From Promethearchaeota archaeon (GTDB lineage Archaea; Asgardarchaeota; Hermodarchaeia; Hermodarchaeales; Hermodarchaeaceae), in assembly GCA_048939625.1 (NCBI GenBank), contig JBHLPH010000016.1:1-47001 (forward strand): a DNA stretch of 47,001 nt. Reading direction: 5' to 3'. Shown piece by piece: positions 818 to 34,631 of the stretch (its first letter is position 1; every line of letters starts with the position of its first letter). Both the position numbers and the translations under genes were made by a program. The notes below the pieces were generated by a model, which worked only from the letters and a program-made list of their open reading frames with translations, did not search any database and was not told the DNA's origin.

Positions 818-830
818 GAGCTGTTCCTCC

Positions 831-1124: not shown

Positions 1125-1143
1125 CAGCTTTCTGCCTCAACAT

Positions 1144-1791
1144 TTATTCATCCGCCGCCATTTCTCGGAGTCGTCGCTTGAAATCGTTTAACCAGCGAAC
1201 AGCTTGGAATTCGAGCTGTTTAGCTTCTTCGGGCGAAAGGGTTTCTTGAGGGTCTCGACCTTGGAGTTGATTCCGCCAATCTTTGAGTGCTACTAGTATC
1301 CAATAATCGGGTGGGAAATTCGGATACTTAGTTAACAGGATAATGGCATCATCCAAGAGTGGGACAACAAGGCTCATTTTTGCAACGTCACCGAGTTTGG
1401 CAATATCAATAAGTGTGATTATGTCTGAGACAATATCAGCCGTTTTGGCTGCCATTCGAACCGAGGTTTGGGGAGTCAGTTCGACCGTTTCTTCACCTTC
1501 GGGTGCCCGTTCACCTATTTGCAACTTCTCAACTGCGATGGGGAAGCGTTCGGTGATTTGTTCCTCTTCTACAAACTCATCCCAGGATTCGCCTTCAGCT
1601 TCCAGTAACTGTCGAGTTTTGATAGTGTCTTTAATAAGTGATTTGAATTGTCGCTTGTAGAGAGCAGGCTGTAAATCGCCTTCATCAAATTTTTCTGCGA
1701 TACTGTCGAGGGTTGCTATCGTTCCATACAATTCTGCTTCTAGTTCGACAACCTTCCCCTTTTTTGGTCGTTTTTTCTCACGCATGGCCAT
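1144..1791 (-). CDS. vps28: ESCRT-I subunit Vps28
   Basis: AELYGTIATLDSIAEKF...Y...L N-terminal hairpin, FPIAVEKL, and C-domain ADIVSDIITLID..KL...PLLDD...W...L..EEAKQLEF. Confidence 0.88.
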   Translation of the reverse strand: MAMREKKRPKKGKVVELEAELYGTIATLDSIAEKFDEGDLQPALYKRQFKSLIKDTIKTRQLLEAEGESWDEFVEEEQITERFPIAVEKLQIGERAPEGEETVELTPQTSVRMAAKTADIVSDIITLIDIAKLGDVAKMSLVVPLLDDAIILLTKYPNFPPDYWILVALKDWRNQLQGRDPQETLSPEEAKQLEFQAVRWLNDFKRRLREMAADE

Positions 1792-1817
1792 AGCATTCGC
1801 CTCTGAAATGGAATAGT

Positions 1818-2573
1818 TTAGACGTATTTTTCGAGAGCCTTGTCAATCTGGTAAAGTCGTTTCTTGTACCGTTTGTACAGTTTGGTATATTCGGTAGAGG
1901 TAATTTCTGCTGAATCGAATTTCTGTTCAAGATTTTGTAATAAATCGGAGATTGCTAGTTTCTCACTTTCCAGTTCGAGCTTCTCGCGTTCTTTAGCGTC
2001 AGCAGGAAGGATGAGAGCATCCATGTCGTCTTCATCGGTGACTTCACCAGTGGTAATGGAGCCTGTGTCGATTTGGGCTGCCATTCGGGCAATTCGTTCG
2101 TCGCGATCTTGGACTTTCTTGGTTAGCCGTGAAACCTCACGTTCCAATTGCTGATACCGTTGTTGCAGCACTTCTTCCTCCTGAGGCATCTTCACCTTGG
2201 GGGCTTCTCGGGTTACATCAGGCACAGGAGGCTCACGGGCAAACAGGCCCTTAATACTATTAACCACCTGATAGACATGATAATGGGGTTGCCATTGGGT
2301 GACTATTCGGAGATGAATAGCTCCAGATTCAGAATCAACCCGGGGATGCTTCGTTGGAGTTAGCATTCGTGCAACTGGCGGTTGAGCTGGAAAGTTCGGA
2401 GGCACAATAATCTCAACGAGGAACTCATCCTTACTTCGGGGTCCACCTTTGATTTTTCCTCGCCAACGACGAAGATTAGACTCAACGGGAGTAAAGGTGG
2501 GTGCTCGTCGGTACATCAATTGTGCTTCACGGGCAATCGCTAATTCTTGTTGACTTCTAACAGCCTGTGCCAT
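1818..2573 (-). CDS. vps23: ESCRT-I Vps23/TSG101-like protein (UEV + coiled coil + steadiness box)
   Basis: UBC fold (P.NFP.QPP, HPRVD..G.IHL) with His replacing the catalytic Cys, a central coiled coil and a C-terminal steadiness-box hairpin. Start moved to ATG 2573, which follows a GGTG SD-like motif (ORF track start 2624). Confidence 0.88.
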   Translation of the reverse strand: MAQAVRSQQELAIAREAQLMYRRAPTFTPVESNLRRWRGKIKGGPRSKDEFLVEIIVPPNFPAQPPVARMLTPTKHPRVDSESGAIHLRIVTQWQPHYHVYQVVNSIKGLFAREPPVPDVTREAPKVKMPQEEEVLQQRYQQLEREVSRLTKKVQDRDERIARMAAQIDTGSITTGEVTDEDDMDALILPADAKEREKLELESEKLAISDLLQNLEQKFDSAEITSTEYTKLYKRYKKRLYQIDKALEKYV

Positions 2574-2620
2574 AGAATCACACCATGATATCTTTATTCG
2601 AATCCTGCTTGTGAGAGCGT

Positions 2621-2636
2621 ACATTTAATCTTTGGC
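2621..2636 (-). promoter_or_regulatory. Putative BRE/TATA promoter of the vps23-vps28-EAP30 operon
   Basis: Minus strand GCCAAAGATTAAATGT about 50 nt upstream of ATG 2573. Confidence 0.35.
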
Positions 2637-2658
2637 AACTAGAACTTGCCAAGGGCAG

Positions 2659-3201
2659 TTAGGTTGAACTACTCTTAGTTTTGTGCTTAGTTGTTGAGCT
2701 TCGTTTGGGGGGTTCGTCCTTTACTGCTTGGCGGACAGTGACTAGTATATTGCTTTGAAGTTCACGAAGAAAATTCTCAAACCGTGTTTCAAAGAGCGTA
2801 ATCATTTCTTCAAGGCGCTGAACAGCTTGAGTTAATGTTGGAACGAGTTCTCGTTGGAGCTCTTTTAGATCTGCTGATGCTGATTCAGGTTTTTTCTTCG
2901 CTACCTTGTCTATGGTTTTTTCAAAGGTCTCAAATCGATCGACGAGAACACCAAGTCGTTCAACAGAGGATTCTGAGGCTATAGTGTCATCCGCGACTAG
3001 CTTTTGCAGTGTTTTCACCTCCCGGAGGAGGGCCCGAATGTTAGCTTCCATCTTGAGATTCATCCGTCCCAGGTCTGAGTCGAGTAGGTTCAGACCTTTC
3101 ACTATCCGCTTCAGGGACTCAACGGTAGGGACTAGGCCCTTTGGCGTTTTGATGGCTTCGATTTCAATTGCATATTTTGGCGGATCAGAGGACACGGTCA
3201 C
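2659..3201 (-). CDS. Hypothetical coiled-coil protein in the ESCRT/ubiquitin cluster
   Basis: 180 aa ORF with a short N-terminal beta motif (IEIEAIKTPKGLVP), heptad-rich helices and a basic tail; GTG start. Confidence 0.75.
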   Translation of the reverse strand: MTVSSDPPKYAIEIEAIKTPKGLVPTVESLKRIVKGLNLLDSDLGRMNLKMEANIRALLREVKTLQKLVADDTIASESSVERLGVLVDRFETFEKTIDKVAKKKPESASADLKELQRELVPTLTQAVQRLEEMITLFETRFENFLRELQSNILVTVRQAVKDEPPKRSSTTKHKTKSSST

Positions 3202-3398
3202 ATTAACCCCCGAAGCTCTCGTTCAAGTTTTACTCACCGCAGACTTTTAAGCTTTAATTTAGCCAATCAAACCTTCAACATGCCAATAGTATTTGCTGAA
3301 AAAACGAGTAAAAAGTTCCATGAAGGATGTATTTCCATAGTTTTTTAAGAACGCATCTAGTAGAGATGCCCGAGCGGAACTGACTAAGGGGCAAGACC

Positions 3399-3650
3399 AT
3401 GACACAATCAGCAGGGCGGTTCATTATCTCATCGGTGAAAGAAATTGGCCAATGGGATTGGACCAAATCCACTGAGATGTGTTGTGTCTGCCGCCTCCCT
3501 ATCAAGACTGGTGAACAGATGGTCTACTGCCCAAATTGTGGCAATCCCGCACATTATCGCCATCTCGCTGAGTGGGTGAAAATGAAGGGAACCTGCCCTA
3601 TCTGTCGGAACCGCATAAGCCTACGAAGGTTGAAACCGGTTAGAAAATAG
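3399..3650 (+). CDS. Small RING-finger protein (E3 ligase-like)
   Basis: CVC-x12-CPNC-x4-H-x2-H-x3-W-x6-CPIC with the conserved RING Trp; directly upstream of ubiquitin. Confidence 0.9.
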   Translation: MTQSAGRFIISSVKEIGQWDWTKSTEMCCVCRLPIKTGEQMVYCPNCGNPAHYRHLAEWVKMKGTCPICRNRISLRRLKPVRK

Positions 3651-3663
3651 TCGGTGGTTAAAA

Positions 3664-3900
3664 ATGCGAATAGAAGTTGTACCAGCGATTGGTGGTAGTG
3701 ACCCCATAGCTCTTGAAGTGGAACCCAATACAACTATTGGGGAGATTCGGAACCGCGTGGCTTCGATGCGTAGGATACCGCCCAACATCGTTATCCTGGC
3801 ATATCGTGGTGCACAGCTGACCGATGAACAGACGATTAAGAGTGTCGGTATCACTCCACATGATAAATTGTACCTCATCACGAGGACCGAGGGCGGCTAA
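3664..3900 (+). CDS. Ubiquitin-like protein ending in Gly-Gly
   Basis: 78 aa beta-grasp pattern (LEVEPNTTIGEIR, IPP, L.Y.G.QL.D..TI..VGI) ending LYLITRTEGG-stop. Confidence 0.95.
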   Translation: MRIEVVPAIGGSDPIALEVEPNTTIGEIRNRVASMRRIPPNIVILAYRGAQLTDEQTIKSVGITPHDKLYLITRTEGG

Positions 3901-4099
3901 GACAAATTAAACCAAACGGTTTCGATCTCAGTCGTCCCTCAGTTTTTTCTCTTCCCTACGTGACAATAAAGACTAGCACCTTCTGCGTTTGCCACAAATG
4001 AATCTATTTTTTATTGCTACCAACCGAAAAGGTATTTACGGGAAATGCATGTGGTAAGGGTAATGGGGACCGGCTTATCTAGGAAGAGGCGCTGTCCAC

Positions 4100-4561
4100 A
4101 TGCTGTCAGAAGAGGACTATTGGGCAAGATTAGCCCTTGAAGCGAAAAACATGGAAACTGAGGAACCGTCGTTCCAACCCGTGCAAGGGGACCTGAGACG
4201 ATGGCAGGGATTCATACTAGGTACAGGTATTTATGATGGGGGCGTTTTTGTCTTACAGATTAATGTTCCACGAGCCTTCCCCTATGAACCTCCACAAGTT
4301 CGATTTATCACCAAAATCTGGCATCCAAATATTTATCGAGGACGAGTGTGTGTCGGAATCTTAGGTAAGGATTGGCTTCCAAGCATGTCTTTAACTGGTG
4401 TAGTAGAAACGCTTCGAAACCTTCTAAATTTCCCTAACCCCGACGATCCTTTAAACCAACGGGCATCTCGTGAAGCAAAAAAAGAACCCGTAAAATTCGA
4501 ACGCACTGCACGGGATTGGGTTCAACGGTTTGCCGGATGGGACCAAATTCAACGTAGGTGA
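4100..4561 (+). CDS. Ubiquitin-conjugating enzyme E2
   Basis: YDGGVF, FPYEPPQVRFITKIWHPNI..GRVCVGIL..W with the catalytic Cys, PNPDDPLN. Confidence 0.95.
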   Translation: MLSEEDYWARLALEAKNMETEEPSFQPVQGDLRRWQGFILGTGIYDGGVFVLQINVPRAFPYEPPQVRFITKIWHPNIYRGRVCVGILGKDWLPSMSLTGVVETLRNLLNFPNPDDPLNQRASREAKKEPVKFERTARDWVQRFAGWDQIQRR

Positions 4562-4569
4562 AACCACCC

Positions 4570-5601
4570 ATGGATGACCAAGTCACTGAGGAACATAAGA
4601 AAATCCCAGTGTACCATGGGACTGAACGTTATGCTCGCCAATTGCTGCTTGAAAATTGGGACCAGGAAAAACTGTCGAAATCCACTGTAGTCGTCGCGGG
4701 GATTGGAGCCCTTGGGACGATTGTAGCTGTCGATTTGGTTCTCACAGGAATTGGAAAAGTTGTGATAATTGATTTTGACACTATCGAACTCTCTAATCTT
4801 AGTCGCCAATACCTCTATTTTGACGACGATGTGGGGAAGCCAAAAGCTGTCGTTGCCGGACAACGTCTCCGCGAAATGAATCCTGATGTGCAAGTGCTAG
4901 CTCTCAATTGTGCCATCCAAGATGTTAGGCATGCAATTTACGAAGAAGCCGATCTCATTATTGATGGTCTTGATACCTTTGAGGCTCGACGTTGGTTAAA
5001 CTCATTATGTGTCCAAAAGAACAAGGTCTTCTTAAGTGGGGGAATGTACGGTTGGTGGGGAAATGTACAACGAGTTGTGCCTTTTGAAACGGCCTGTTTG
5101 GAATGCCAGCCTTTGGTTCCCGCAGAACGCTTACAAAAAGCATGTACACCACCTGGCGAGCGTCGTAAAAAAGAAGAGCCACCTCCCAAATTCCCGTCCC
5201 TTCTAAGCGTGGCAACCATAGTTGCTGGAATCCAATTTCAAGAAGCATTAAAGCATCTGTTGAATGTAGGCACTCCGCTAGATAATTATCTGTTCTATGA
5301 TGGTCTCCATCAGCAGTTCACTATTCTCAAACTAGCACGAAATCCTAACTGCTTCCTTTGTAGTGACCGGTTCCGTCTCAAAGGAGAAATCTATGCTGTG
5401 GGGCGCAAGGAAACTGTCGCTGAATTGAAAAATCGATTGATTATGACTTTTGGTTTACAAGACCCCAAGATTATTCGTCGTGGAAAAGTCCTTGATGACA
5501 ATCAAGTCCTAGGAAAATTACGCCTAAAGGATAAAGAAACTCTTTTCATTATCGATACGGCCTTGGCGCAACCTCTGAAGTTATTGGCTGTTTTTAAATA
5601 A
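4570..5601 (+). CDS. Ubiquitin-activating enzyme E1 (ThiF adenylation domain + C-terminal ubiquitin-fold domain)
   Basis: RYARQ, GIGALG, DFDTIELSNLSRQ, GKPKA, CLEC/CFLC zinc pairs and a catalytic Cys in ACT. ATG 4570 follows AGGTGA (alternative GTG 4558). Confidence 0.93.
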   Translation: MDDQVTEEHKKIPVYHGTERYARQLLLENWDQEKLSKSTVVVAGIGALGTIVAVDLVLTGIGKVVIIDFDTIELSNLSRQYLYFDDDVGKPKAVVAGQRLREMNPDVQVLALNCAIQDVRHAIYEEADLIIDGLDTFEARRWLNSLCVQKNKVFLSGGMYGWWGNVQRVVPFETACLECQPLVPAERLQKACTPPGERRKKEEPPPKFPSLLSVATIVAGIQFQEALKHLLNVGTPLDNYLFYDGLHQQFTILKLARNPNCFLCSDRFRLKGEIYAVGRKETVAELKNRLIMTFGLQDPKIIRRGKVLDDNQVLGKLRLKDKETLFIIDTALAQPLKLLAVFK

Positions 5602-15670: not shown

Positions 15671-18600
15671 CTAGCCGAAGAAGGTGTCCAGTCTACGCAT
15701 TCCTATAGTATCCAGCCACTCAACACCTAGCGCGTCCAGAACTTGTTCGAAGGTACTCTTTACCAAGTCCTTGTATTTGGTTACATCGATATCCTGAGGA
15801 GAAGCTTGCTCCACGGGTTTCACACCACCGGTGGTTTTCACAAAAGATATGATGTCACCTGCCGTCACCTCTTTACCTGAATCTTGAAGTTGCCGGGCTG
15901 CCTTCACATGCTGGGGGGTCGTTTTCGTGTATGCATCGAGGCTTTTCGTTAATTGGACACGAATCGCCAAATCCTCTACATCAAATTCCCGTCGCTCAAG
16001 CATGGTCAGCTTTTCACGGGCTAGGCGCAGGATCCGGTCCTTCGCTGAAGTAAATCCATCCGGATCTCGGACTTGGCTTAGAATGTCAATCATTTCCATG
16101 AACGCCTCTTGAAGAAAGAGTGGCGTATTCCGTTTCTTGCCTGTCAACCCCTTAATATCCACTTGCCCATCCTTCGAGACACCAAGATAATTCTTCTTTC
16201 GGCTTGACAAGGCCACATACCGGTATTCCTTCTCAACATCTAATTCCACACGGAGTTCCTGTTCACTATATTCAATTAGCTTCCTTAGCTGCTCTTGGGA
16301 TGGATGGTCTAAGAACAAGCTATCAGTATCACCATACAGAACCGTTACCCCAAGCTCCTCAGCCTTTTCGATTGTCTGCGTAATCGCATACCTTCCCAAA
16401 GCCGTGACACTATTACCTGACCAGCAAGCTTTCCCATTTCGTCTGATATAAACTAGATGATTTTTTACATCGACGCAGTAGACCATCCCATTATAATCGA
16501 TCCAAGATCGATGATCTACCCCCTTATTCTGCATTGGTTCTAGCATTTGGTATGAAATGTAAATATTATTGAAGTTTTCAGAATTAGTAATTGTCGAGGC
16601 ATATCCCATTTTTAATATGAGTTCTTGAAAATTATCAGCCAAGGCTTTTGAAGCAGTTCCATAGGATCTCCCACTCCAACCATCTCCGAGCATCATAGAT
16701 TTGAATAGAATACGCAATTGTCGTGGAGACAGGTTTAACAAATTTCTTGGAATAAACTTATCATAACTCTTATGAAATTGTTCAAGATACGAATATAGTT
16801 GCTTATTGTGGACTGTCAGATTTTTTTCATATTCCTTAAAGTCAAATGGCAACTTTGCCAACCATTTCTTGATTTTCGCTCGTTTATCAACATTGGATTG
16901 CGTGACTATAACTTTGTATTCTCGTGAATTACCTCCAGTAGCACAGCCCTCAGCTAGCCAGATGCCAAAGAATCTTAACCAATCATCCATCGAAATTCTG
17001 ATTTGCTTTTCTACAATTTCCTCGAATTGATGTTCAGCTTTAACAATTCGTCCCTTTCTATCTCGCTTTTTAATTTTGGTTCCGACAAGTTTCTTTTTCT
17101 TAACTGGAGGAAGAATAAACCACTCTTGCTCTTTGCCTGTCCATTCAGCATTTCTTTTGTATTTCACATATCTTGGCATATCTAAAGGAGTTCTAAAGCC
17201 CCATCTGATAACCTGTTTGTAATTATTTTTTCCCCGCCAACCAACATACATTCTATGGTTAGGTGTTACCAACAAATCGATGTTACTACTAACCTGAGAA
17301 AACATTGGCCCCGAGTAGTATTCTGCAATATACTTTTGCGGTTGCTCATATACTAACTCACTACATTTTCCTAGTGTGGCAACTTTTTCATTTGAAAGCA
17401 AGTCCTTAAACAATTTCCATCCATTTTCTGTTAAAATCTCAGTATCATCCGAATAACATTCAGCTGCAGGGGCACAATACAAGGGAAAGTGACTGGCGCC
17501 TAGCACCCCATACTGGGCATTCAAAAATACTTTGAGCGCTTGCTCGACTACGCTGAACCAGCTTCTTTGTTCAGTGGGGAGTGTTTTGTCCTTTGCTCTT
17601 AATTTGAAGTGCTCAACACGAACGTCCCGTATAAGTCCAATGATAAGACTTGTAATTCCTTGCCTGCGGGTGCAAACCCAATGGGGTGTGCCGGGAACGA
17701 GGTTGTCTTTGCATTCAGGGTGATCGCACCGGACGGTTTCATAACTTAGATTGTAGGCTTTCATGATACTAGGATACAGGCTTGCAAAATCAACAACGGT
17801 GACGTTGAAGTGAACCCCTTCTTTGGGTTCGACGACGATAGCGCCCATGTATTTTTTACCTTTGATGATGGCTTCGGTGACCGCTTCGCCTTTAAAGGCG
17901 GCGATTTCGTCTTGGCGGGGGATGAGGTAGTTGCGCTGGCGGTGAGCATAGTAGAGGAGGCTGCGGATCCAGTTGGATACTGCGGTACGTGTTAGGTCAT
18001 GCATTCCCTGACGGGAAATCCGCATTAAAAGTAGAATCAGGCCCATCACGAGGTCGTTATCAAATTGAGTTAGACGGAGTGTAAGGCTGGCATCCTGCCA
18101 GTTATACTGCGCCAAAAGATCTGTAGGAATTTTGTTGATTTGATCAGGAAGTTCCAATTTGCCTTCTCCTAAAAGGGCTTGGCTAATAGTCTCGAGACGA
18201 ACCTCGCTGTATCGATTTCGAAATGCGTAAATCTGGATGGAGCGATTATGGAAGAACCGGTATAGGTCTATGTGTACACCATATTCTAGTTCAGCTTCAG
18301 GATTACCTCTAAAACCGCCTCGCAAGCGGATGGGATTGTCAGCCGGTGGGATACCAAGTTTTTTCGCTCGATTCACGAGATATTGGAGGTCGAAGTTGTC
18401 GCCATTGAAGGTTAACAAGATAGGGGTTCGCCAAAGGATGCGAAATACATTTTCAACAAGTTCTTTTTCGTCATCAAAAAATTTAGTAGTAACCGTATCG
18501 GGAAGGTTGTCCTGAGTGACATCTCCCTTGCCACGTCGAAGCATTAGGAGTTTGCCCATTCCACTGTCATCTGCAAAAGCAACTGAGATAATAGGTTGGG

Positions 18601-19387
18601 GGGCTTGATCGGGATCTGGAATACGGTCAATGAATTCTGATTCGACCTCAATATCGATTGCTAATCGTGGTAGGGAGGTAGCAGGTGTTAGGAAGAGGGG
18701 GAGATACTCCTCAATCAGTTTGGAGAGTTCTTTATCATCTTTGAATAGTCCACGTATTTTTGATGCATCTTCAGGAGAAAATTTCTGGGGTACAGGAACG
18801 AGCTTGGTGTCTTGAACACGATACATAAGCCCGGGTGTGAGCGCACGATCCATTGTGTAACATTGGGTGTAACGGATGTCTGCTTCCCAAGCATGATCGC
18901 GTCCTAATTTTTCACGAATCGAGTCAGGACGGCCACCAATAGCCAAGGGGTCTCGTGCAACAATGATAGTGTATTCTTGTTCTTGGTCTCGAAGCAAGTT
19001 GTATTTAGAAATCGTCTCCAGTTTTAGAAAGCCTGGGTGGCTAATTACATCGTTTTGTTGGGAAAGATCATTGCGAGAAAAATCGGTAAGACAGTAAGGA
19101 TGGTGTTGCGTGTTGTCAAGCCATTCATAAATTTGAGCTCTGCTAGCATCATAAATTTTGACTTTAGCGACACCGACATCACCTTGATAATCGATATTGA
19201 TCAAGACTCCTGGAGGACCCGATTCAGGAGTCTTGGGAAAATCAGATGGGCGAATTGGCTGATTTTCAAGCTGTGTAAGAATGTGCTTTAAGAGAGAGAA
19301 CCTCTTGCTTTTTGATGATGGTGGAGTTTCCTTGGATTCGGTTTTTGATTCAGATGTGTCCATCCAAGACGATAGATTCGAAGGCAC
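15671..19387 (-). CDS. polB1: DNA polymerase B1 (crenarchaeal/Asgard type), intein-containing
   Basis: DIEV...RIPD exo I, FNGDNFD, KY.GA.V, DFASLYPSI, KVFLNA.YG, YGDTDS, KKNY.G. Removing the intein leaves 889 aa, typical of PolB1. Confidence 0.93.
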   Translation of the reverse strand: MPSNLSSWMDTSESKTESKETPPSSKSKRFSLLKHILTQLENQPIRPSDFPKTPESGPPGVLINIDYQGDVGVAKVKIYDASRAQIYEWLDNTQHHPYCLTDFSRNDLSQQNDVISHPGFLKLETISKYNLLRDQEQEYTIIVARDPLAIGGRPDSIREKLGRDHAWEADIRYTQCYTMDRALTPGLMYRVQDTKLVPVPQKFSPEDASKIRGLFKDDKELSKLIEEYLPLFLTPATSLPRLAIDIEVESEFIDRIPDPDQAPQPIISVAFADDSGMGKLLMLRRGKGDVTQDNLPDTVTTKFFDDEKELVENVFRILWRTPILLTFNGDNFDLQYLVNRAKKLGIPPADNPIRLRGGFRGNPEAELEYGVHIDLYRFFHNRSIQIYAFRNRYSEVRLETISQALLGEGKLELPDQINKIPTDLLAQYNWQDASLTLRLTQFDNDLVMGLILLLMRISRQGMHDLTRTAVSNWIRSLLYYAHRQRNYLIPRQDEIAAFKGEAVTEAIIKGKKYMGAIVVEPKEGVHFNVTVVDFASLYPSIMKAYNLSYETVRCDHPECKDNLVPGTPHWVCTRRQGITSLIIGLIRDVRVEHFKLRAKDKTLPTEQRSWFSVVEQALKVFLNAQYGVLGASHFPLYCAPAAECYSDDTEILTENGWKLFKDLLSNEKVATLGKCSELVYEQPQKYIAEYYSGPMFSQVSSNIDLLVTPNHRMYVGWRGKNNYKQVIRWGFRTPLDMPRYVKYKRNAEWTGKEQEWFILPPVKKKKLVGTKIKKRDRKGRIVKAEHQFEEIVEKQIRISMDDWLRFFGIWLAEGCATGGNSREYKVIVTQSNVDKRAKIKKWLAKLPFDFKEYEKNLTVHNKQLYSYLEQFHKSYDKFIPRNLLNLSPRQLRILFKSMMLGDGWSGRSYGTASKALADNFQELILKMGYASTITNSENFNNIYISYQMLEPMQNKGVDHRSWIDYNGMVYCVDVKNHLVYIRRNGKACWSGNSVTALGRYAITQTIEKAEELGVTVLYGDTDSLFLDHPSQEQLRKLIEYSEQELRVELDVEKEYRYVALSSRKKNYLGVSKDGQVDIKGLTGKKRNTPLFLQEAFMEMIDILSQVRDPDGFTSAKDRILRLAREKLTMLERREFDVEDLAIRVQLTKSLDAYTKTTPQHVKAARQLQDSGKEVTAGDIISFVKTTGGVKPVEQASPQDIDVTKYKDLVKSTFEQVLDALGVEWLDTIGMRRLDTFFG
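16412..17458 (-). mobile_element. Intein with LAGLIDADG homing endonuclease in PolB1 (349 aa)
   Basis: Starts CYSDDTEILTENGW, block B VTPNH, LAGLIDADG-like FFGIWLAEG and FKSMMLGDG, ends VYCVDV.NH...RRNGK..WSGN followed by +1 Ser. Flanks rejoin as PAAE|SVTALGR. Visibly more AT-rich than the host gene. Confidence 0.93.
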
Positions 19388-20008: not shown

Positions 20009-21754
20009 TTGGCTTCGGCACAGCCTCCAGCAGGGTTAACTATCTCCATTAAGGAACACGAACATACACGATTGACGGCAGATAACACCATTTCCCGATT
20101 TGATCCACGTGGTCAAGTGTTAATCAAGAATAATTCTCGAAAGTATGCCGTATGGGATGCAGAATTAGAGCTAAACCGACAAAATCGAACCACTTTAGGA
20201 ACTGATACCTTGGATATCGGTCGTTTGGATCCGATGACAGAGTGGGAAAAAGATTTCATCGTAAAAGAAATCGAGTCTCCTATGCTTTTACTCTCTGAAG
20301 CTCTTGATACATATTATGAACGCGTCGGCGTAAACAACGCCTTGGTTTTCGAGTATAAGATGCCTATAGAGATCAGTCTCAACCTTCGAAATCACTCAGG
20401 CGCAAGAATCCATGATATTATTGTTACAAAAGAAATCCCACCAATTTATGATGACATTGCGATTCAGAAAGCTCAGGTTGGTTCTGTAGAGTATGATTCT
20501 AAAGCCGGTCAAATTATTTGGAAAATTGCAGAACTACCTTCCGAACAAGTTGCTGTACAACGAATCCGTGCAACTATAACTGCTGAAGACACGGAGCCGA
20601 AGCCTGGTGGTAAAGTGCAAGCTTCGTATCGAATAACTGATGTAGTACGTAGTACACTTGTCCCAACGCTTCATGCATCAACGGAAACTGAGATCGGTGT
20701 TGAAAAGGAAGAGAATCCAATGCGGGTTGGGTTCTGGCGATGTAAAGCGTCTCTCCGGAATGCATCAGAGTTTCCACTTCGTCTTGAACGTGTGCAGGTT
20801 GTCCTGACAGCACCTGAAAATGAGGTCCTGTATGAAGGAAATCCGAATCTTCGGTTAGAACCAGGTGAAGTTTGGGGTCATGAATTGGAAGTGAGTGGAG
20901 AGCAGCCAGAATTTGATGTAATTGCCCTCTCGACTGTGGAAGCGCCAATTATTCGTGAAATTGTAGGAACAATTGAAAAAACTGAAACGGTGTTGCCCGT
21001 ACTTCGCGTTGAAGGTAATAAGCGTGTGGAACCCCTGGAATTACTTGCTTGGGAACCTGCTCCTGTGTCTGTCACTTTGCAGGCAAAGAATACGGGTTCA
21101 ATCGAGTGTGACGAAGTCACATTCATTGAAACACTTCCAGCAGGATTTGAACCTCCTGAAACCACGCAAATTCGTGTTCGGTTAGGTGATAAGCCGATTA
21201 CTCGAAGTCTGAAAGTAGATGTTCGACCAAAGGACCGAGATTTGAATCTCCCGCATACCCTGAGTATTCAACTTCAAGATCTGACTGAAAACCACTCTCC
21301 AATAACCCCGGGAGATACCTTGACAGCCAATTACATCAGCATTGCACGAGCGCCAAAACCCAATCATGAACATCCGCTTCCAGTGAAAATTGAAGCCAAC
21401 ACCTTTCCTCCCGGTCCAAAAGCCACTGCCGAAATCTCTGAGACAATGGCCCCAGTCATCAAAATTCGTTCAGTGGTGCGAAAGCTTCGAAAGACTCGAA
21501 CTGTGGCACCCACCTCCGAAGTGGGGGAACTGCTTGTTACGGTTACTTTTGTTAATGAGGGGGAAACTAGCCTCCATGATCCCGAGTTACAGGATCTAAT
21601 TCCTCCGAATTTTGAATTCGTTGGTGTGCCACAAGGAACACCAGAACCAACTGCCCGTGAAACAATGAATGGCACAGTTGTCACTTGGGTTTTGCCTACG
21701 ATGATGAGCCGAGAAAGCTTTGTTGGTAAGTACAAGTATAAGCCAAAGGATTAG
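20009..21754 (+). CDS. Cytosolic multi-beta-sandwich protein (mu-homology-like N-terminal half, DUF11/Ig-like C-terminal domains)
   Basis: Repeated Ig-type motifs (..N.G.......D.IP..F, W...L); no signal peptide or TM; TTG start after GAGGTG. Confidence 0.7.
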   Translation: MASAQPPAGLTISIKEHEHTRLTADNTISRFDPRGQVLIKNNSRKYAVWDAELELNRQNRTTLGTDTLDIGRLDPMTEWEKDFIVKEIESPMLLLSEALDTYYERVGVNNALVFEYKMPIEISLNLRNHSGARIHDIIVTKEIPPIYDDIAIQKAQVGSVEYDSKAGQIIWKIAELPSEQVAVQRIRATITAEDTEPKPGGKVQASYRITDVVRSTLVPTLHASTETEIGVEKEENPMRVGFWRCKASLRNASEFPLRLERVQVVLTAPENEVLYEGNPNLRLEPGEVWGHELEVSGEQPEFDVIALSTVEAPIIREIVGTIEKTETVLPVLRVEGNKRVEPLELLAWEPAPVSVTLQAKNTGSIECDEVTFIETLPAGFEPPETTQIRVRLGDKPITRSLKVDVRPKDRDLNLPHTLSIQLQDLTENHSPITPGDTLTANYISIARAPKPNHEHPLPVKIEANTFPPGPKATAEISETMAPVIKIRSVVRKLRKTRTVAPTSEVGELLVTVTFVNEGETSLHDPELQDLIPPNFEFVGVPQGTPEPTARETMNGTVVTWVLPTMMSRESFVGKYKYKPKD

Positions 21755-24272: not shown

Positions 24273-25304
24273 CTATCCTTCTTTCGTGTTTTTTGCGGTA
24301 CCGAGCCAACTACTGTAAAGAGGTTTTTCAAGGTCAAAAACCTTGACTGTGAGGTGGGGGATTTGTGCTTTGAGATCCGTTTCAATCCGTGTTGGAAGAC
24401 CAGGAAGCATTGAACCTCCTCCAGTGAGGACGATATTTGCGGCTAGTTCTGCGCGCACAGTAGTGTCTACACGCATTAATACATCTACAATAGCCTCTGT
24501 TAAGCCTTTGTCTCCTACCCCAAGAAGCGTTGGATGAAATAATACTTCTGGGGCTTGCCAGGGTAGCGGTCCGAGTGGAAGTTGTAGTCCTTCAAACGAA
24601 AAATCAACGTCGTCCTCAAAAACATCATTAACGGCCATGGGAAAGACTTGACAGTGAGTTTGTTTAATCGCCCGAATTGCTTTCTCATTTTGCGTAAGTT
24701 GAGTATAATGGGGGACTAATTCCGCTGGGGAGGTTTCGCTTTTATGGAGTAAGAGTTTCCGAATTTCAGCAGATACAAAAAAACTGCCTGTTACTAGGGG
24801 GAGAATTTGCTCTTCAAGGAGAAAACCTCGATAAATCGGAGTGACAAAGGTGCTAGTGTAGCCGATATCAACAATTAATCCAGTTTTTCGTCCCCAATGA
24901 CTCCACGTTGATATCTGTTGAATTGCAGCATCAACCTGGTGGCAGCCTAGAGCCTCCTGGAGAACTTGACACAAATCATTCACTCGATCTGATGGAGATT
25001 GTGGAAATACCAACAACGTTAATTTGAGTTTATCACGTTGCTTGTTCATTGTGGGAAAGTGCTCTAACGCTAGAATGCACAGTTGTGTAATAAGCGAAGA
25101 ATCCGTGGGAAGAAAACCGTCCTCTAAAGGAAATATCCACGCTCGACGGCCTGGATCTAATTCGAGAAAAACCGATGGACTGCCACTTGGGTTGGGATTT
25201 TTAAAAGCAGCAGGTATGACTATGGGTTCTGGTTGTTCAGGAAACCCACATTTCATGTAGCCACTACCCAGGTCAATGATAAGGTTGGCTTGGGTATTAT
25301 TCAC
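24273..25304 (-). CDS. Divergent actin-related protein (acidic paralog)
   Basis: IIDLGSGYMKCGF, FPLEDG, AIQ, G.KTGLIVDIG, PIY.GF, IK...C.V, APEVLF.P.L.G, D..VR.EL.ANIVLTGG.SMLPG, YSSWLG. Confidence 0.9.
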   Translation of the reverse strand: MNNTQANLIIDLGSGYMKCGFPEQPEPIVIPAAFKNPNPSGSPSVFLELDPGRRAWIFPLEDGFLPTDSSLITQLCILALEHFPTMNKQRDKLKLTLLVFPQSPSDRVNDLCQVLQEALGCHQVDAAIQQISTWSHWGRKTGLIVDIGYTSTFVTPIYRGFLLEEQILPLVTGSFFVSAEIRKLLLHKSETSPAELVPHYTQLTQNEKAIRAIKQTHCQVFPMAVNDVFEDDVDFSFEGLQLPLGPLPWQAPEVLFHPTLLGVGDKGLTEAIVDVLMRVDTTVRAELAANIVLTGGGSMLPGLPTRIETDLKAQIPHLTVKVFDLEKPLYSSWLGTAKNTKEG

Positions 25305-25416: not shown

Positions 25417-26430
25417 TTAAGGTGGTCTATGCAGAGTTGCGGCACCTGACCACGCGTTGGTCAATGCATCCTCGAGTGCGTAAACATTAATGGGAAGATG
25501 TGGAAGGCGACGTTTGAGTTCGTATTCGAACCGTTCACGGAGTCCAAGGAAGAGGGATCCACCTCCCGTGAGTACAATATCATTTGATAGTTCTCGGCGG
25601 ATGGTCATATCAGCCTGCTCAATACAATTCACCACAGCATCTATCAGCCCCATATCACCAATCCCAATGAGTGAAGGGTCGAACAGGACTTCTGGTGCTT
25701 TCCAAGTAACCGAGCCCAGAGGAACTTTTAGATCTTTACGTCGATAATGCCATTCACGCGGCGTTTTCTTGATTTTAGGATTAGGACGAACCTGACAGAA
25801 ATTACGTTTAATATACTCGATGGCTTTGGTGTCTGTTGCAATTTTGGCATAGTCAGAGTACTTTGCTGAATTCTTTGCTTTTTCCTCGAATAGGCGCCGT
25901 AAAGCTGCAGTCACATAGAGACTTCCTGTTACGGTATCAACTACATGTTCCCGTAGGAGAAATCCTTGGTAAATGGGCGTTATAATCGAAATCGTGTGCC
26001 CAATATCTACGACTGTTCCTGTATGTTTTCCAAGGAATAGGAGTGTGAGAACTTGTTGATAAGCTGCAAGGAGTTTCCGGCATCCAAGTTTTTCTCGAAG
26101 TCCATCACACACATCATAGATACGATTTTGCTCGACTGTAGAAAAAACGAGGAGTTGGAGTTCAGTTGCAACCCGTTGGAACCCTCCAATCGCTACCCGG
26201 TTAAATACATCCAGAATGAGAGGGGCTAGAATCTCACTATCTGGAAGACTTCCATTTTCGAGGGGATAGAATTTACCAATTCGTGTTGGGTCAAGTGTAG
26301 TAAGATAGGGGTCACCCTTATTCTTTTCAGGATCTTTCAGGTATGCAGGAATTATCTTGGGAAGAGCATCATCAGGATGGCCATATTTGAGATAGCCCGT
26401 GCCTAAATCGATAATAAGGGGATTCTGCAT
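25417..26430 (-). CDS. Divergent actin-related protein (basic paralog)
   Basis: IIDLGTGYLKYG, YPLENG, Q.VL.L..G..TG.VVDIG, PIYQGF, IK..FC.V, APEVLFDPS.IG, D..IR.EL..IVLTGG.S.F.G, W.G. Confidence 0.9.
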   Translation of the reverse strand: MQNPLIIDLGTGYLKYGHPDDALPKIIPAYLKDPEKNKGDPYLTTLDPTRIGKFYPLENGSLPDSEILAPLILDVFNRVAIGGFQRVATELQLLVFSTVEQNRIYDVCDGLREKLGCRKLLAAYQQVLTLLFLGKHTGTVVDIGHTISIITPIYQGFLLREHVVDTVTGSLYVTAALRRLFEEKAKNSAKYSDYAKIATDTKAIEYIKRNFCQVRPNPKIKKTPREWHYRRKDLKVPLGSVTWKAPEVLFDPSLIGIGDMGLIDAVVNCIEQADMTIRRELSNDIVLTGGGSLFLGLRERFEYELKRRLPHLPINVYALEDALTNAWSGAATLHRPP

Positions 26431-28808: not shown

Positions 28809-30218
28809 CTAAATGAAGATTGGCCACATCGACATCTGTTTCGGTAATGACAATTGCCGGAATGGTTTCTCTTTGGAAGCGTCATTTACGAACTGAGCAA
28901 GGGAACCGACTGTCATTGGTTTCTTGTAGGATTTTTTCGCTGTTGATTTTTCACGAAGCGTTACTGGAAAGTCCTTAGCTTTCATCTCGTTATCACCGAT
29001 AACAGCAAGAAAGGGAACCCACTGTTGTCCAGCATTTCTAACTTTCCAGCCTATGGTTTTTCCGCGATCATCAAGAACTGCCCGAACATTCCGTGACCGG
29101 AGTTGATCGACAATTTCACTGGCATAGGCTTTATGACGATCTGCTATGGGCGCAATAACGACTTGGACCGGTGAGAGCCAAAGCGGTAACATGGGAAGTT
29201 GTCCCTCTTGTTGCCGTTTTGCAGCACTTTCGAGTAGCCCGTACACTAGCCTTTCAAGACTCCCTATGCTGGTGTGGACAATGATGCAGCCCACATCCTC
29301 CCCGTTCTCATTCACGTAAGTAATTCCATAACGTTCTGCATCAGTGACATCGAGTTGAACTGTACTCAGTTGTCCCGAACCCTCTGCAGCATCCACAAAC
29401 TGAAATTCGTTCTTCACGTTCCAGTAATGCGTCATTTCCGGTAATAACTCGACAAGGATGGCACGTTTCAGATCCTTAGCGAGCATAATGAGTAAGTCTT
29501 TGGTCTGTTCATAATATTCTTCGACTATCCGGAAAACCAGCAGATAATCGATACCAAGACCGTGAATTAGAGTATCATAATTCTTGGTAATCATTGCGAA
29601 TTCCTGTTTACCCTGTTCATAGTCCGCGCAGAAACAATGAATATCCGGCATAGTAAACGCTCGTAATCTTCGAAGACCCACACATTCACCCCGTTTTTCT
29701 AGCCGGAATGAAGGAGAGAGTTCAAAAATCCGAACCGGAAGCTGTCGATGGGACATTTGCGTGTTTTTCATCGTCGAAAATAGACCAAAATCGCCAGCAA
29801 AGCGTAATAAGAGCTCCTTGTCTTTACTTAATTTAATGCGGTAATCTTTTTCCAAGAATTTCTCTGCCTGCTCGGCAATATCTTTCTGGCTAATCCGATA
29901 CATCAAGGGGGTTTCAATTCGCATAGCCCCAATCATATCTACTGCAATCGTATGGACGTAATCTTCCAATAACTCCTTCAAGAGCGCTCCTTTGGGATAG
30001 AATTTGAAGTGTCCCACATCAGAAGCAGGTTCGTAATCGATGAGTTCCAATTGCCGCATAATGCGAATATGGGGTGGTTCCCCTTTGGCGGCTCGACCAA
30101 GTTCTTCTGTCTCGATAAAGGTGCGAAGTTCTCCTTTGACAGCCACCTGACTATCTAAATCGTCTAAATCGAGAGGTTTTTCGACGCCTTTTGAGTCAAT
30201 GATTAAGTACTTAGCCAA
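28809..30218 (-). CDS. thrS: Threonine--tRNA ligase, archaeal type, lacking the N-terminal editing domain
   Basis: EPPH...M...EL.DYEP.SD.G...YPKG, SFR.E.RGE..GL.RLRAFTMPD.H, LSTVQ.D, GS.ER, LPLWLSP.QV. Probable TTG start 30218 (ORF track 30239). Confidence 0.92.
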   Translation of the reverse strand: MAKYLIIDSKGVEKPLDLDDLDSQVAVKGELRTFIETEELGRAAKGEPPHIRIMRQLELIDYEPASDVGHFKFYPKGALLKELLEDYVHTIAVDMIGAMRIETPLMYRISQKDIAEQAEKFLEKDYRIKLSKDKELLLRFAGDFGLFSTMKNTQMSHRQLPVRIFELSPSFRLEKRGECVGLRRLRAFTMPDIHCFCADYEQGKQEFAMITKNYDTLIHGLGIDYLLVFRIVEEYYEQTKDLLIMLAKDLKRAILVELLPEMTHYWNVKNEFQFVDAAEGSGQLSTVQLDVTDAERYGITYVNENGEDVGCIIVHTSIGSLERLVYGLLESAAKRQQEGQLPMLPLWLSPVQVVIAPIADRHKAYASEIVDQLRSRNVRAVLDDRGKTIGWKVRNAGQQWVPFLAVIGDNEMKAKDFPVTLREKSTAKKSYKKPMTVGSLAQFVNDASKEKPFRQLSLPKQMSMWPIFI

Positions 30219-30301
30219 AGCTAACGCCTTCCTATACAATATACCGTGTACTCGCCAAATCTCGTTTCAATAGGGATAAAAGTTTCTCTAGACGACCGAG
30301 A

Positions 30302-31507
30302 ATGGAAATGGAGATAACGACAATGACACCATCTCTTGTTCAGGAAAAAAGCCAACAAGCTCTCAACCTCCTCAAGAAACTCGATTTCGATACATGGATG
30401 ATATGGGTTCGAGAAACAAAACAGATGGCTGATCCTGTACTATCGCTTGTGCTGGGAATCGACCTCGTATGGCAGTCAGCATTAATTTTTACTCAAACTG
30501 GACAACGTATCGCAATTGTAGGCAACTTCGATGCAGATGGTCTAAGACCGCTAGGAGTCTTCGATAAGATTATTCCGTATACACAAGACATTCGAGAAAC
30601 ACTTCGAAATGAGCTTGAGGCTCTTTCCCCAAAGAAAATCGGTCTAAACTATAGTCGTGATGACGTAGCTGCTGACGGCTTGACCCATGGAATGTACAAC
30701 CTACTCGCTGAATACTTACAGGGTACGCCTCACACCCAAAAATTTGTTAGCGCAGAACCTTTGCTTCTTCAATTACGGGGACAAAAAACACATGAGGAAA
30801 TCAGACGTATTCAGCAAGCGGTCACGATTACGGAACAAATCTTTGACGAAGCCAAGCAATTTCTCCAAGTTGGACAAAGTGAGCAAGAAATTTCTAAATT
30901 CTTCCATCAGCGTATGAAAGCGCATAGCGTTTCATTTGCTTGGGGAATAGATCACAATCCAGCAGTTGATGCGGGACCAAACAAGCAGTTTGGTCATGCA
31001 GGACCTACTGAGAATGTGACAAAAGAGGGACATCTCTTACACTTCGATTTTGGAGTGCGATACCAGGGATATTGTTCGGATATACAACGGATGTTCTTTT
31101 TTGGTTCAGCATCACATATCCCAGAAGAAGTGCAGACAGCTTTTGAGACCGTTCGTGATGCCATCCAAGCAGCTTCAGAGTTCATTAAGCCGGGTGTGAA
31201 AGGTTATGAAGTTGATAAGGTAGCACGTAGCTTTATTTTAGATCGAGGGTTTGATGAATATCAACATGCCCTTGGGCACCAAGTGGGTCAAGAAGCCCAT
31301 GATGGTGGCACTCTTCTTGGTCCGTTATGGGAACGATATGGTGCCAGTCCAAAAGGTGTTGTCGAACCAGGAAATGTCTTCACGCTAGAACTGTATGTAA
31401 CGACACAGAATTTTGGACAGATCAGTCTCGAAGAAGATATTGTGGTCACCAAAAAAGGATGCAAGTTTTTATCTACCCCTCAAAGTGAACTCATCTGTAT
31501 TAGTTAA
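30302..31507 (+). CDS. Xaa-Pro peptidase family (M24B), metal ligands intact
   Basis: HFDFG....YCSDIQR, HALGH.VG..HD, FTLE, LEED. Confidence 0.92.
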   Translation: MEMEITTMTPSLVQEKSQQALNLLKKLDFDTWMIWVRETKQMADPVLSLVLGIDLVWQSALIFTQTGQRIAIVGNFDADGLRPLGVFDKIIPYTQDIRETLRNELEALSPKKIGLNYSRDDVAADGLTHGMYNLLAEYLQGTPHTQKFVSAEPLLLQLRGQKTHEEIRRIQQAVTITEQIFDEAKQFLQVGQSEQEISKFFHQRMKAHSVSFAWGIDHNPAVDAGPNKQFGHAGPTENVTKEGHLLHFDFGVRYQGYCSDIQRMFFFGSASHIPEEVQTAFETVRDAIQAASEFIKPGVKGYEVDKVARSFILDRGFDEYQHALGHQVGQEAHDGGTLLGPLWERYGASPKGVVEPGNVFTLELYVTTQNFGQISLEEDIVVTKKGCKFLSTPQSELICIS

Positions 31508-31516: not shown

Positions 31517-31593
31517 TGGCGGGCCCGCAGGGATTTGAACCCCGGACCTCCAGATCCGCAATCTGGCGCCATATCCTACTAGGCCACGGGCCC
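31517..31593 (-). tRNA. tRNA-Arg(GCG), CCA encoded, no intron
   Basis: Reverse complement GGGCCCG...CCAGA-TTGCGGA-TCTGG...GGTTCAAATCC...CGGGCCC-G-CCA; TTTTAAAA box upstream at 31629-31636. Confidence 0.95.
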
Positions 31594-31674: not shown

Positions 31675-32178
31675 TTAGGTTCCTGCTAAAATATTTCGCC
31701 ATTCATCAATATCTTCGAGAAGACTTTCTCGGTGTTTTACACTCAGATCTTGGTTTATTTTGTAACCCTCAAGAGTTCTTATCCATCGCGCCCAAGGACC
31801 CATTAGCCGAGGATCATGTCCCACGAGGCGGTGAGAGAGTTCGCGTCGTTTACGCATAGCTGCTAGAATATCAACAGCCCGTGAGAACCGCTCAATCTCC
31901 CGTTTCATTGCATCTACCTCATCTAAGGCGGGATTTGTGCCATATTGATCTGAATTTTGAGAGAAGCGATCCAAAATAGATTCTACCTCATTGGGTTGCA
32001 GGTTGGCAGCTCGGAGAGCTTCATCTGCAACCATCAAGGCTTTCTCAAGAACAGCTTTTAGTAGTATCAAATTGTTTTGGGCAATCACGTTTGGTGGATG
32101 TTCTAAGGTTTTTTCACAGTCTTGGAGAAGTTTTTCTACGGTTTTCCGATGGTCACGCACTTCTTTTTCATATGACAT
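31675..32178 (-). CDS. Hypothetical helical protein
   Basis: About 167 aa charged helical ORF (ATG 32178; ORF track 32187). BRE/TATA-like GAGAAACTATTATAA on the minus strand at about 32248-32262. Confidence 0.7.
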   Translation of the reverse strand: MSYEKEVRDHRKTVEKLLQDCEKTLEHPPNVIAQNNLILLKAVLEKALMVADEALRAANLQPNEVESILDRFSQNSDQYGTNPALDEVDAMKREIERFSRAVDILAAMRKRRELSHRLVGHDPRLMGPWARWIRTLEGYKINQDLSVKHRESLLEDIDEWRNILAGT

Positions 32179-32312: not shown

Positions 32313-33437
32313 CTAAACCGTTTCAAGAGGAATCTGGTTCAGAGTCTCATATTCCTCGACTTTCTGACAGATAATCGTGTCTCCGAGACGAACACTTCCC
32401 AAACCAGGAACCTTGAGACCAGTTTCAATAGTAAATACCATCCCTGGAAGAACAGGGGTTTCTTCAGTAGGAGAAATATAGGGTGCCTCGAGTGGTTGAA
32501 GTCCAATTCCACTTCCTAATTGTGAATCCAAGTTTTTCAAATAACCTCGATCATCTGTAACTCGACGGATGCTTAAAGCAATATCGCGGACAAGGGTTTC
32601 TGGGTTGAGTATTTTTTTGGCTGTGTTCACCGAATCTCGAGCGCATTCAAAAAGTGCTTGCTGTTTCTTAGTTGGCTTTCCAGTAAGAACCGATCGTGTA
32701 AGATTGGAACAGTAATCATCATTTACAGCTGATACAGAAATTACAACGAACTCCTTGGATCCAATTTCGCGACGGCCCGCAGGAACGAAAGGACAGCCTG
32801 CACGAGGTCCGGATGCAATGACTGTAGGATACCCAGTTTGTGTGGCTCCAGCTTTTCGGAGGGTTCGTTCCACTTCGCCTGCTACTTCGATTTCTGATAT
32901 CCCTGGACGTATGAACTCAATTGCAGCTCTTAATCCATTTTCCGCGATTTGGAAAGCAGTTTTAATTTTTTCGATTTCAACTTCGTCTTTAATCATTCGC
33001 AATTCGGCTAGAGCGTTGGAGATATTTCTAAACCCAGCGTCGGGTAAGAGGCTTTTGATTTCCTCGAAGCGCCGTGCAGATATATGGTTTAATTCAATTC
33101 CAATGTCAACTGAGCGCAGATTATAAGTCTCAAGGGCAGTTTGGAGAGCCTCAATAAGAGTAGATTGGATGCCATTGGTAATCTGAGGATGGTAGGGTTG
33201 AATGTTCCGAAACCATGAACCCGATTTTGCGAATTCACATTCAGCCTCAGGAACGATAAGCAGAGGATCGGCGTCGCGAACGAGAATCGCAACGGAGTTC
33301 CCCAGTATTCCTGTTGGTTTATACCCTGTAATGTACCGAATATTGAATGGATCAAACAGGAGCACACCTTTAAGTTCTTCACGGGTCATAATTCGCTGAG
33401 CCCGGTCTAGGCGCATACTAGGAACACCGCTGTACAT
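32313..33437 (-). CDS. Catalytically degenerate aminopeptidase-P/M24-fold protein
   Basis: Creatinase-N domain (NIRYITGY) plus M24 core (LRMIKD..EI, PG.SE.E, PGMVFTIE), but with most metal ligands replaced. Start is ATG 33437 or 33416. Confidence 0.88.
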   Translation of the reverse strand: MYSGVPSMRLDRAQRIMTREELKGVLLFDPFNIRYITGYKPTGILGNSVAILVRDADPLLIVPEAECEFAKSGSWFRNIQPYHPQITNGIQSTLIEALQTALETYNLRSVDIGIELNHISARRFEEIKSLLPDAGFRNISNALAELRMIKDEVEIEKIKTAFQIAENGLRAAIEFIRPGISEIEVAGEVERTLRKAGATQTGYPTVIASGPRAGCPFVPAGRREIGSKEFVVISVSAVNDDYCSNLTRSVLTGKPTKKQQALFECARDSVNTAKKILNPETLVRDIALSIRRVTDDRGYLKNLDSQLGSGIGLQPLEAPYISPTEETPVLPGMVFTIETGLKVPGLGSVRLGDTIICQKVEEYETLNQIPLETV

Positions 33438-33540: not shown

Positions 33541-33618
33541 GGGCCCTTGGCCTAGTATGGATAGGGCGACAGGTTCCGGACCTGTAGATCCCGCGTTCAA
33601 ATCGCGGAGGGCCCGCCA
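33541..33618 (+). tRNA. tRNA-Arg(CCG), CCA encoded, no intron
   Basis: GGGCCCT...ACAGG-TTCCGGA-CCTGT...CCGCG-TTCAAAT-CGCGG-AGGGCCC-G-CCA. Confidence 0.95.
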
Positions 33619-33713
33619 CTCCGAGTTCGACTTTATGGTCCTTGCATATCTAAAATGCTTAAAGGTCTCTCAATCCATGAACCGCTAGTATCTAGAGGTT
33701 TGTAGCATTGCAA

Positions 33714-34631
33714 ATGGAATCCCAGTGTGTCACTTGTTTAATTTCACGAGCCTTTCAGGAAGTGCAATTAGCGACATCTAACGTAGAATTACAATTAGCC
33801 GCCATGACTGAGGTCGTAGGAATTCTACACTCATCAATGATGCAAGGAAGTCGCTTTGAGAAGATTCCTGCATATGTTGGCACACGGCGGGACCATGCTA
33901 TTCAACGCATAACCGGTTGTCCGGACGCTTATGCTCAATTAAAACAGAAATCCAATGAGGCAGCCTTAGGTCTGATTGCTCCACTCGAGGACTTTGTAAA
34001 GAAGCCGAAAGATTCCAAGGAATGTTTTCGTAGAGCATGCATAGCAGCGTCACTTGGTAATGTTATTGAATACGGTGTATCGGGGCACGAAATTCCATGG
34101 GACAATTTACCTCAACTTATTACAAAAGCCGAAAGCGAATTAGTAGTTGACCATATTCCACAACTGTATAAATTGGCACAGGAGGCTTCACACACGCTTT
34201 ATTTGACAGATAACGCAGGTGAAGTCGTGTTTGACCGGTTACTAATCGAGGCTTTAACGAAAGTAGGTTCAAAGGTCACAGTAGCTGTGAAAGAGAAGCC
34301 GGTTTTGAATGATGCCATGCTTGAAGATGCCAACGCCGCAGGATTAGCTGATTCAGCGGATCTTGTCACAACGGGAGGCGGAGCTGTTGGCGTCTTACCT
34401 CAATGGTGCTCAGAAGAGTTCCTTAACCTGTTTAATGAGGTTGATTTGGTAATCGCAAAAGGCATGGGACACCATGAGACGCTCCCAGAATTTACGTTGC
34501 CTACCCCGTCAGCGCATCTATTGCGAACGAAATGCTTGCCAATTGCACGCTCTTTGAATGTACCCAAGGACCGAAACGTTGTGAACGTTCTCATTGGGCA
34601 TCAAGGACCCTTAGGACCGCTAACAAAATAG
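33714..34631 (+). CDS. DUF89/ARMT1-like damage-control phosphatase
   Basis: C..CL, D.Y...K..SN, GN.I.YG, TDNAGE..FD, P.LNDA...D, IAKGMG..E, KC..IA. Confidence 0.9.
   Translation: MESQCVTCLISRAFQEVQLATSNVELQLAAMTEVVGILHSSMMQGSRFEKIPAYVGTRRDHAIQRITGCPDAYAQLKQKSNEAALGLIAPLEDFVKKPKDSKECFRRACIAASLGNVIEYGVSGHEIPWDNLPQLITKAESELVVDHIPQLYKLAQEASHTLYLTDNAGEVVFDRLLIEALTKVGSKVTVAVKEKPVLNDAMLEDANAAGLADSADLVTTGGGAVGVLPQWCSEEFLNLFNEVDLVIAKGMGHHETLPEFTLPTPSAHLLRTKCLPIARSLNVPKDRNVVNVLIGHQGPLGPLTK

Follow-up and report, generated by a model that had tools for sequence, protein, structure and literature searches.

A prolidase-like protein with a dismantled metal site at a Hermod locus belongs to an old Asgard clade whose likeness to the Spt16 N-terminal domain is probably convergent

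The analysed window, a stretch of 47,001 nucleotides from a Promethearchaeota archaeon of the Hermodarchaeaceae (contig JBHLPH010000016.1), contains on its minus strand an open reading frame for a protein of the M24 peptidase fold that has lost most of its metal site (Table 1). Elsewhere, the window holds a ubiquitin-ESCRT cluster of a kind known for Asgard archaea (83-5601), with genes for Vps22/36-like (83-817), Vps28 (1144-1791), UEV-Vps23 (1818-2624), an E2 (4100-4561) and an E1 with a ubiquitin-like domain (4558-5601), followed by a Yip1 gene; a 1238-aa family B DNA polymerase (15671-19387, minus) interrupted by a LAGLIDADG-like insert that is probably an intein; a 581-aa protein (20009-21754, plus) with DUF11 and a weak match to an adaptor-complex mu subunit; two tandem, divergent short actin-family genes on the minus strand (24273-25304, 343 aa, and 25417-26430, 337 aa); and a short ThrRS-like gene (28809-30239, minus, 476 aa) apparently devoid of an editing domain, as judged by eye from the sequence.

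Table 1. Coordinates of the pseudo-peptidase gene, its parts and its neighbours in the window
Feature	Position	Strand	Remarks
Pseudo-peptidase ORF	32313..33437	minus	called length 374 aa; true start probably 33416 (367 aa)
Creatinase/prolidase N-terminal domain (PF01321)	32991..33413	minus	residues 9-149
Pita-bread Peptidase_M24 domain, metal site dismantled	32364..32972	minus	residues 156-358
S234 codon	32736..32738	minus	altered metal ligand
N245 codon	32703..32705	minus	altered metal ligand
S309 codon	32511..32513	minus	altered metal ligand
E338 codon	32424..32426	minus	metal ligand, kept
G352 codon	32382..32384	minus	altered metal ligand
Clade-specific C-terminal tail	32316..32342	minus	fixed length, ends [ED]T + hydrophobic residue
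Intact M24 peptidase (D,D,H,E,E)	30302..31507	plus	different, distant subfamily
tRNA-Arg(GCG)	31517..31593	minus	conserved neighbourhood
167-aa all-helical ORF	31675..32178	minus	directly downstream of the pseudo-peptidase, same strand
tRNA-Arg(CCG)	33541..33618	plus	conserved neighbourhood
DUF89/ARMT1-like phosphatase	33708..34631	plus	neighbour in Hermod, Freya, Jord, Atabeya

The called frame is open over all of its 374 codons, although orthologue lengths and their alignment make the next Met the likelier start, since most orthologues begin there and comprise 367 aa. The protein has the Creatinase_N and pita-bread domains that characterise an M24B Xaa-Pro peptidase (PepQ) and lacks the full set of five metal ligands (D,D,H,E,E) and the substrate-binding histidines of such an enzyme: against the intact M24 peptidase nearby, the ligands read S234, N245, S309, E338 and G352, and the histidines are replaced by F217, S305 and L316. 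The earlier note on this DNA, which took the same peptidase as its control, was therefore right that the metal ligands are lost and a single Glu is kept; this neighbour is a fair control for the motifs and is not the parent of the pseudo-peptidase. The predicted structure (pLDDT 91) is matched best by prolidase, at Z 42.8 and with an rmsd of 1.7 over 347 residues. Creatinase reaches Z 42.0 (41-42 for creatinase and ectoine hydrolase DoeA), and Spt16 stands at rank 29 with Z 36.8. A sequence search of solved structures was likewise headed by Pyrococcus prolidases (148 bits, about 30% identity), and Spt16 was not among its matches at E < 0.001.

The gene is under purifying selection, with a dN/dS of 0.063 against three genomes, which resembles the value of 0.067 obtained for the intact neighbour from one unsaturated pair. 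Of 18 Hermod relatives, 16 have an orthologue, at identities of 53-89%, and among 50 Hermod orthologues D245 is kept in 10, H309 in 12 and E338 in 48, so that the letters recalling Spt16 are late changes within Hermod. The free variation of the site residues would suit a decaying pseudogene or a relaxed, functionless paralogue; however, the low dN/dS contradicts this reading, as do the breadth of occurrence in Hermod and full-length, single-copy frames in 10 families, and we regard it as scarcely credible.

Relatives were searched in 300 Asgard genomes and 1.84 billion representatives, which yielded full-length proteins with damaged sites in 10 Asgard families, including Hermod, Thor, Freya, Jord, Atabeya and Baldr. 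These proteins are monophyletic in both trees (100/100 with IQ-TREE under LG+C20+F+G4; 97 with FastTree on 260 rows), and their best matches outside the clade are nearly all intact PepQs. All orthologues measure 360-400 aa with a conserved C-terminus, whose closing [ED]T plus hydrophobic residue is missing from intact Asgard PepQs; they retain the N-domain residues usual in prolidases (R9, N32, Y35 and G38), and their acidity slightly exceeds that of active PepQs. Longer, fused forms were also looked for and none turned up, a result of little weight. In a sample of 25 genomes from other families, no M24 gene proved to belong to the clade; the sample included complete genomes of Heimdallarchaeum aukensis, of another Heimdallarchaeota member (4.9 Mb), of a Loki and of an Odin archaeon. 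What the earlier note saw as a metal-less aminopeptidase is thus a selected gene with a dismantled site, and a member of an old Asgard clade rather than a lone decayed paralogue; since the literature searched contains no description of it, the clade is apparently undescribed. Another, apparently separate M24 protein whose ligand positions are damaged (V,N,H,R,E) is encoded in Asgardarchaeum (L329:1483-2571); it did not join the clade in the tree, but the length of its branch weakens this placement.

The metal site has come apart differently in each lineage. In the order of the canonical set, the ligands are D,E,S/N,H,A in Thor, D/N,D/E,H,K,E in Atabeya, N,D/N,H,E,E in Freya, V,R,H/S,K/R,E in Jord, N,K,H,E,G in Baldr and N,D,H,E,E in one further family; to judge from these residues, Freya and the last family, which keep four of the five, might still bind metal or show residual activity. 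Judged from present-day states and change counts, D245N, a one-base change, requires at least 4 events on the tree, and the replacement of His by Arg at least 8. Comparison with active enzymes revealed no pocket residue that is both conserved and specific to the clade. Conservation confined to the clade is seen instead in the linker (G135, K137), in the first helix of the C-domain (E163, R170, T171), at T252 and in the C-terminal tail, with frequencies of 0.98 in the clade and 0.10 in active enzymes for R170, 0.79 and 0.01 for G135, and 0.72 and 0.01 for T252. Because these positions lie outside the pocket, we infer a binding protein.

The same comparison bears on the possibility of a metal-independent enzyme with new chemistry, for which creatinase provides a precedent in the same fold. 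The creatinase fold score, as high as that of prolidase, and the persistence of E338 in Hermod would fit such an enzyme, but a pocket that is not conserved argues against it. The E338 site carries K, H or Y in other classes, the His position of creatinase-type members is F/Y/N/L/R, and in the tree the clade stands apart from the creatinase-like proteins of Asgard. We therefore consider new chemistry improbable. A creatinase-like M24 subfamily reading x,E,H,E,S and marked by an HSDT motif has a member in the same genome (L003:913-2214, contig 67) and is widespread in Asgard, Heimdall and Loki genomes included.

The surroundings of the gene are conserved beyond Hermod; most clade members lie near tRNA-Arg, ArgRS or DUF89 genes. 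One or both of tRNA-Arg(CCG) and tRNA-Arg(GCG) occur near the gene in Hermod, Thor, Jord, Baldr and two further families, and ArgRS is a neighbour in Freya, Jord, Atabeya and one more family; ThrRS, ABCE1 and an RsmB-like gene are further neighbours. In the window, the two tRNA genes point outward and flank the pseudo-peptidase together with the 167-aa gene, and in Thor this pair is found upstream of the orthologous gene. A gene for a ribbon-helix-helix (RHH), coiled-coil and winged-helix (wHTH) protein stands upstream on the opposite strand in Freya, Jord, Atabeya, Thor and one more family, and was not found in any of 19 Hermod genomes. The protein, exemplified by L269:4825-5352, has a single gene per genome in Thor, Freya, Jord, Atabeya and two more families, and this gene usually sits just upstream of the pseudo-peptidase. 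The synteny supports orthology; as to function, it gives no more than a hint of translation or regulation; proximity within archaeal housekeeping blocks need not imply shared function.

Directly downstream in Hermod, and only there among the genomes searched, lies the gene for the 167-aa helical protein, a candidate partner of the pseudo-peptidase. The protein is strongly conserved (mean column identity 81%), and its C-terminal four-helix bundle is matched best by the yeast Vps28 C-terminal domain (Z 11.0, rmsd 2.3 over 84 residues). Homology to Asgard Vps28 (3.7% in profile comparison) was not supported, and neither was homology to the RHH-wHTH protein (27%).

The neighbouring intact M24, about 0.8 kb away, raises the possibility, also mentioned in the earlier note, that the protein is the inactive subunit of a heteromeric peptidase formed with an active M24 paralogue; the prolidase-typical N-domain residues that it keeps, and the intact PepQ that Freya and Jord also hold, are compatible with such a complex. 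The two genes are, however, adjacent in Hermod only, second matches in Hermod genomes are weak, and no canonical PepQ was found in the source genome (88% complete), whose other M24 proteins belong to distant subfamilies. A heteromer with an active PepQ is for this reason unlikely in Hermod, and we give the heteromer reading as a whole little chance.

The earlier note had gone further and proposed, from a likeness of motifs, a possible relative of the histone-binding Spt16 N-terminal domain (Spt16-N) of FACT. When checked on real Spt16 sequences, taken from metagenomes and mainly of plants, fungi and a few others, the Spt16 motifs given in the note proved broadly right, and one parallel stands: D245N is the only identical ligand-site replacement in the two proteins. 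Most of the shared letters (SG, YCS, RT, GxGIG, GMVF and DT), on the other hand, are ordinary M24 consensus that active PepQs have too. At the site of E338, Spt16 has S/A/T/N, and at that of the last Glu it has A/S/I/T rather than the Gly of the Hermod protein. Where columns conserved in Spt16 differ between intact PepQ and the clade, 10 agree with intact PepQ and 3 with the clade; G236, Y263, D353 and T367 are retained by Spt16 and altered in the clade, whereas D138 and D151 are common to the clade and Spt16 more than to active enzymes, and the last substrate His is Arg in Spt16 and in many clade members.

Profile comparisons pointed in the same direction as the columns. An Spt16 profile that retrieves solved Spt16 structures and proteins named Spt16 gave intact PepQs 80 bits in Freya, 73 in Odin and up to 88 among the representatives, compared with 6-55 bits for the clade and 35 for the Hermod protein; in reverse, the clade profile gave PepQ 299 bits and Spt16 75. 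Homology of the pseudo-peptidase with Spt16 is detectable, HHalign reaching 99.5%, and the closest prokaryotic matches of Spt16-N are of the PepQ type, with archaeal ones leading. PF14826, the Spt16 N-lobe, matched none of 37 clade members at E up to 1, while Creatinase_N matched all 37; a search of five genomes with PF08512, PF08644 and PF14826 found no match, but the controls were equally silent, so that this counts as no evidence. A complex prediction for the pseudo-peptidase with the genome's own histone scored 0.00, which is uninformative either way. The profile ranking suggested in the earlier note, and a ranking by fold, thus turned against a special relationship, the Spt16 profile preferring intact PepQs and the fold preferring prolidases. 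Since profile scores depend on evolutionary rates, trees were used as well.

In free tree searches, Spt16 never grouped with the clade. Forcing it beside the Hermod protein was rejected (AU p 0.024); beside the Hermod group, it cost 11.5 log units and was not rejected in the free search (p 0.31); as sister of the whole clade, it cost 1.2 log units (AU p 0.47). We further attached Spt16 in turn to each of the 69 branches of a fixed tree. This was done with plain and with mixture models, for the two lobes together or the C-domain by itself, and also after removal of the site columns. Placements inside the clade carried a total weight of 0.2-2%, nearly all with p < 0.06 on the two-lobe alignment and a few with p 0.05-0.13 on the C-domain only, and the branch sister to the whole clade carried 2-4% (p 0.33-0.52), as one of 25-36 tolerable branches. 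The phylogeny proposed in the earlier note accordingly rejects Spt16-N as the direct sister of the Hermod protein and tolerates a sister position of the whole clade.

That sister position is the form in which the Spt16 proposal has to be weighed: a PepQ duplicate of the Asgard ancestor would no longer have needed catalysis, would have gained a chromatin role and later been fused into FACT. It is consistent with the tolerated placement, with a clade that is Asgard-specific, old and slightly acidic, with the shared D138, D151 and Arg, and with the PepQ-type prokaryotic matches of Spt16-N, headed by archaeal ones. It is opposed by the low weight of that one branch among many, by the columns and profile scores that favour intact PepQ, including the four residues kept by Spt16 and changed in the clade, by the repeated origin of D245N and of the Arg, and by the failure to find the clade in the Heimdallarchaeia-type genomes searched, complete ones included. 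We judge it very unlikely. Spt16-N derives from somewhere in the PepQ radiation, and the data give the pseudo-peptidase clade no preference; the pseudo-peptidase likely arose independently and its likeness is probably convergent, which falls short of proof because the backbone of the PepQ tree lacks resolution.

We favour, with a probability of roughly 0.7, an Asgard-specific pseudo-prolidase retained as a protein-binding factor, for which the following course can be proposed: (i) the gene of a PepQ-type Xaa-Pro peptidase would have been duplicated early in Asgard history; (ii) one copy would no longer have needed its metal site, which has decayed differently in each lineage; (iii) the two-domain prolidase fold appears to be retained in the model, and the prolidase dimer probably with it; and (iv) the protein would have taken on a non-catalytic job, binding a partner through linker 135-138, helix 163-174 with R170, and the C-terminal tail. 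A housekeeping adaptor in translation or gene regulation may be the likeliest role, given the neighbouring tRNA-Arg pair, ArgRS, ThrRS, ABCE1, RsmB-like and RHH-wHTH genes. The ribosome-associated Ebp1 and Arx1, which arose from methionine aminopeptidase, may be a parallel. Of the particular roles, translation is a tentative suggestion, partnership with a regulator a more doubtful one, and binding of histones improbable.

Databases annotate the clade proteins as ordinary Xaa-Pro peptidases, and an old, single-copy pseudo-enzyme family spread over much of Asgard diversity offers a target for a non-catalytic role of the pita-bread fold in archaea. Were the clade the surviving sister of Spt16-N and active on archaeal chromatin, which we think a slim prospect, the histone-chaperone domain would gain an archaeal root. 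Histone chaperones have been called eukaryotic innovations in a broad survey (10.1101/2021.11.30.470311), a 2026 preprint on Asgard chromatin makes no mention of FACT (10.64898/2026.07.02.735847), and no paper that connects Spt16 with Asgard proteins turned up in our literature searches.

To conclude with the known systems, archaeal PepQ/prolidase (M24B; PDB 1pv9, 1wy2; NF040821) has the same two domains and the same length and is the best match by sequence, profile and fold; the Hermod protein differs in lacking four of the five metal ligands and the substrate histidines and in its clade-specific linker, helix and C-terminal tail, and it scores 164 with NF040821, for which the cut-off is 630. 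Creatinase and DoeA share the fold and have non-canonical sites, but they keep a conserved catalytic set, which the clade lacks, its last Glu being mostly lost, and they branch apart. Ebp1/PA2G4 and Arx1 have the M24 fold without catalysis (PMC3888471); they are single-domain derivatives of methionine aminopeptidase and have no creatinase N-domain, which the Hermod protein has, and TIGR00495 does not match the latter. Spt16-N of FACT (PDB 5e5b, 3cb5, 3biq, 5ce6), of which the human form binds H3/H4 at about 2.8 uM (PMC4741192), shares with the Hermod protein the two-lobe aminopeptidase-P fold, the absence of a metal site and the D-to-N change at the second ligand; it differs in sequence (about 16% identity), in fold rank, in PF14826, and in forming a separate branch in every tree, and its insertions and fused dimerisation, middle and acidic domains are missing from the stand-alone clade proteins. 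The pita-bread fold has thus become a non-enzyme more than once, and a motif likeness to Spt16 is easily reached by convergence.
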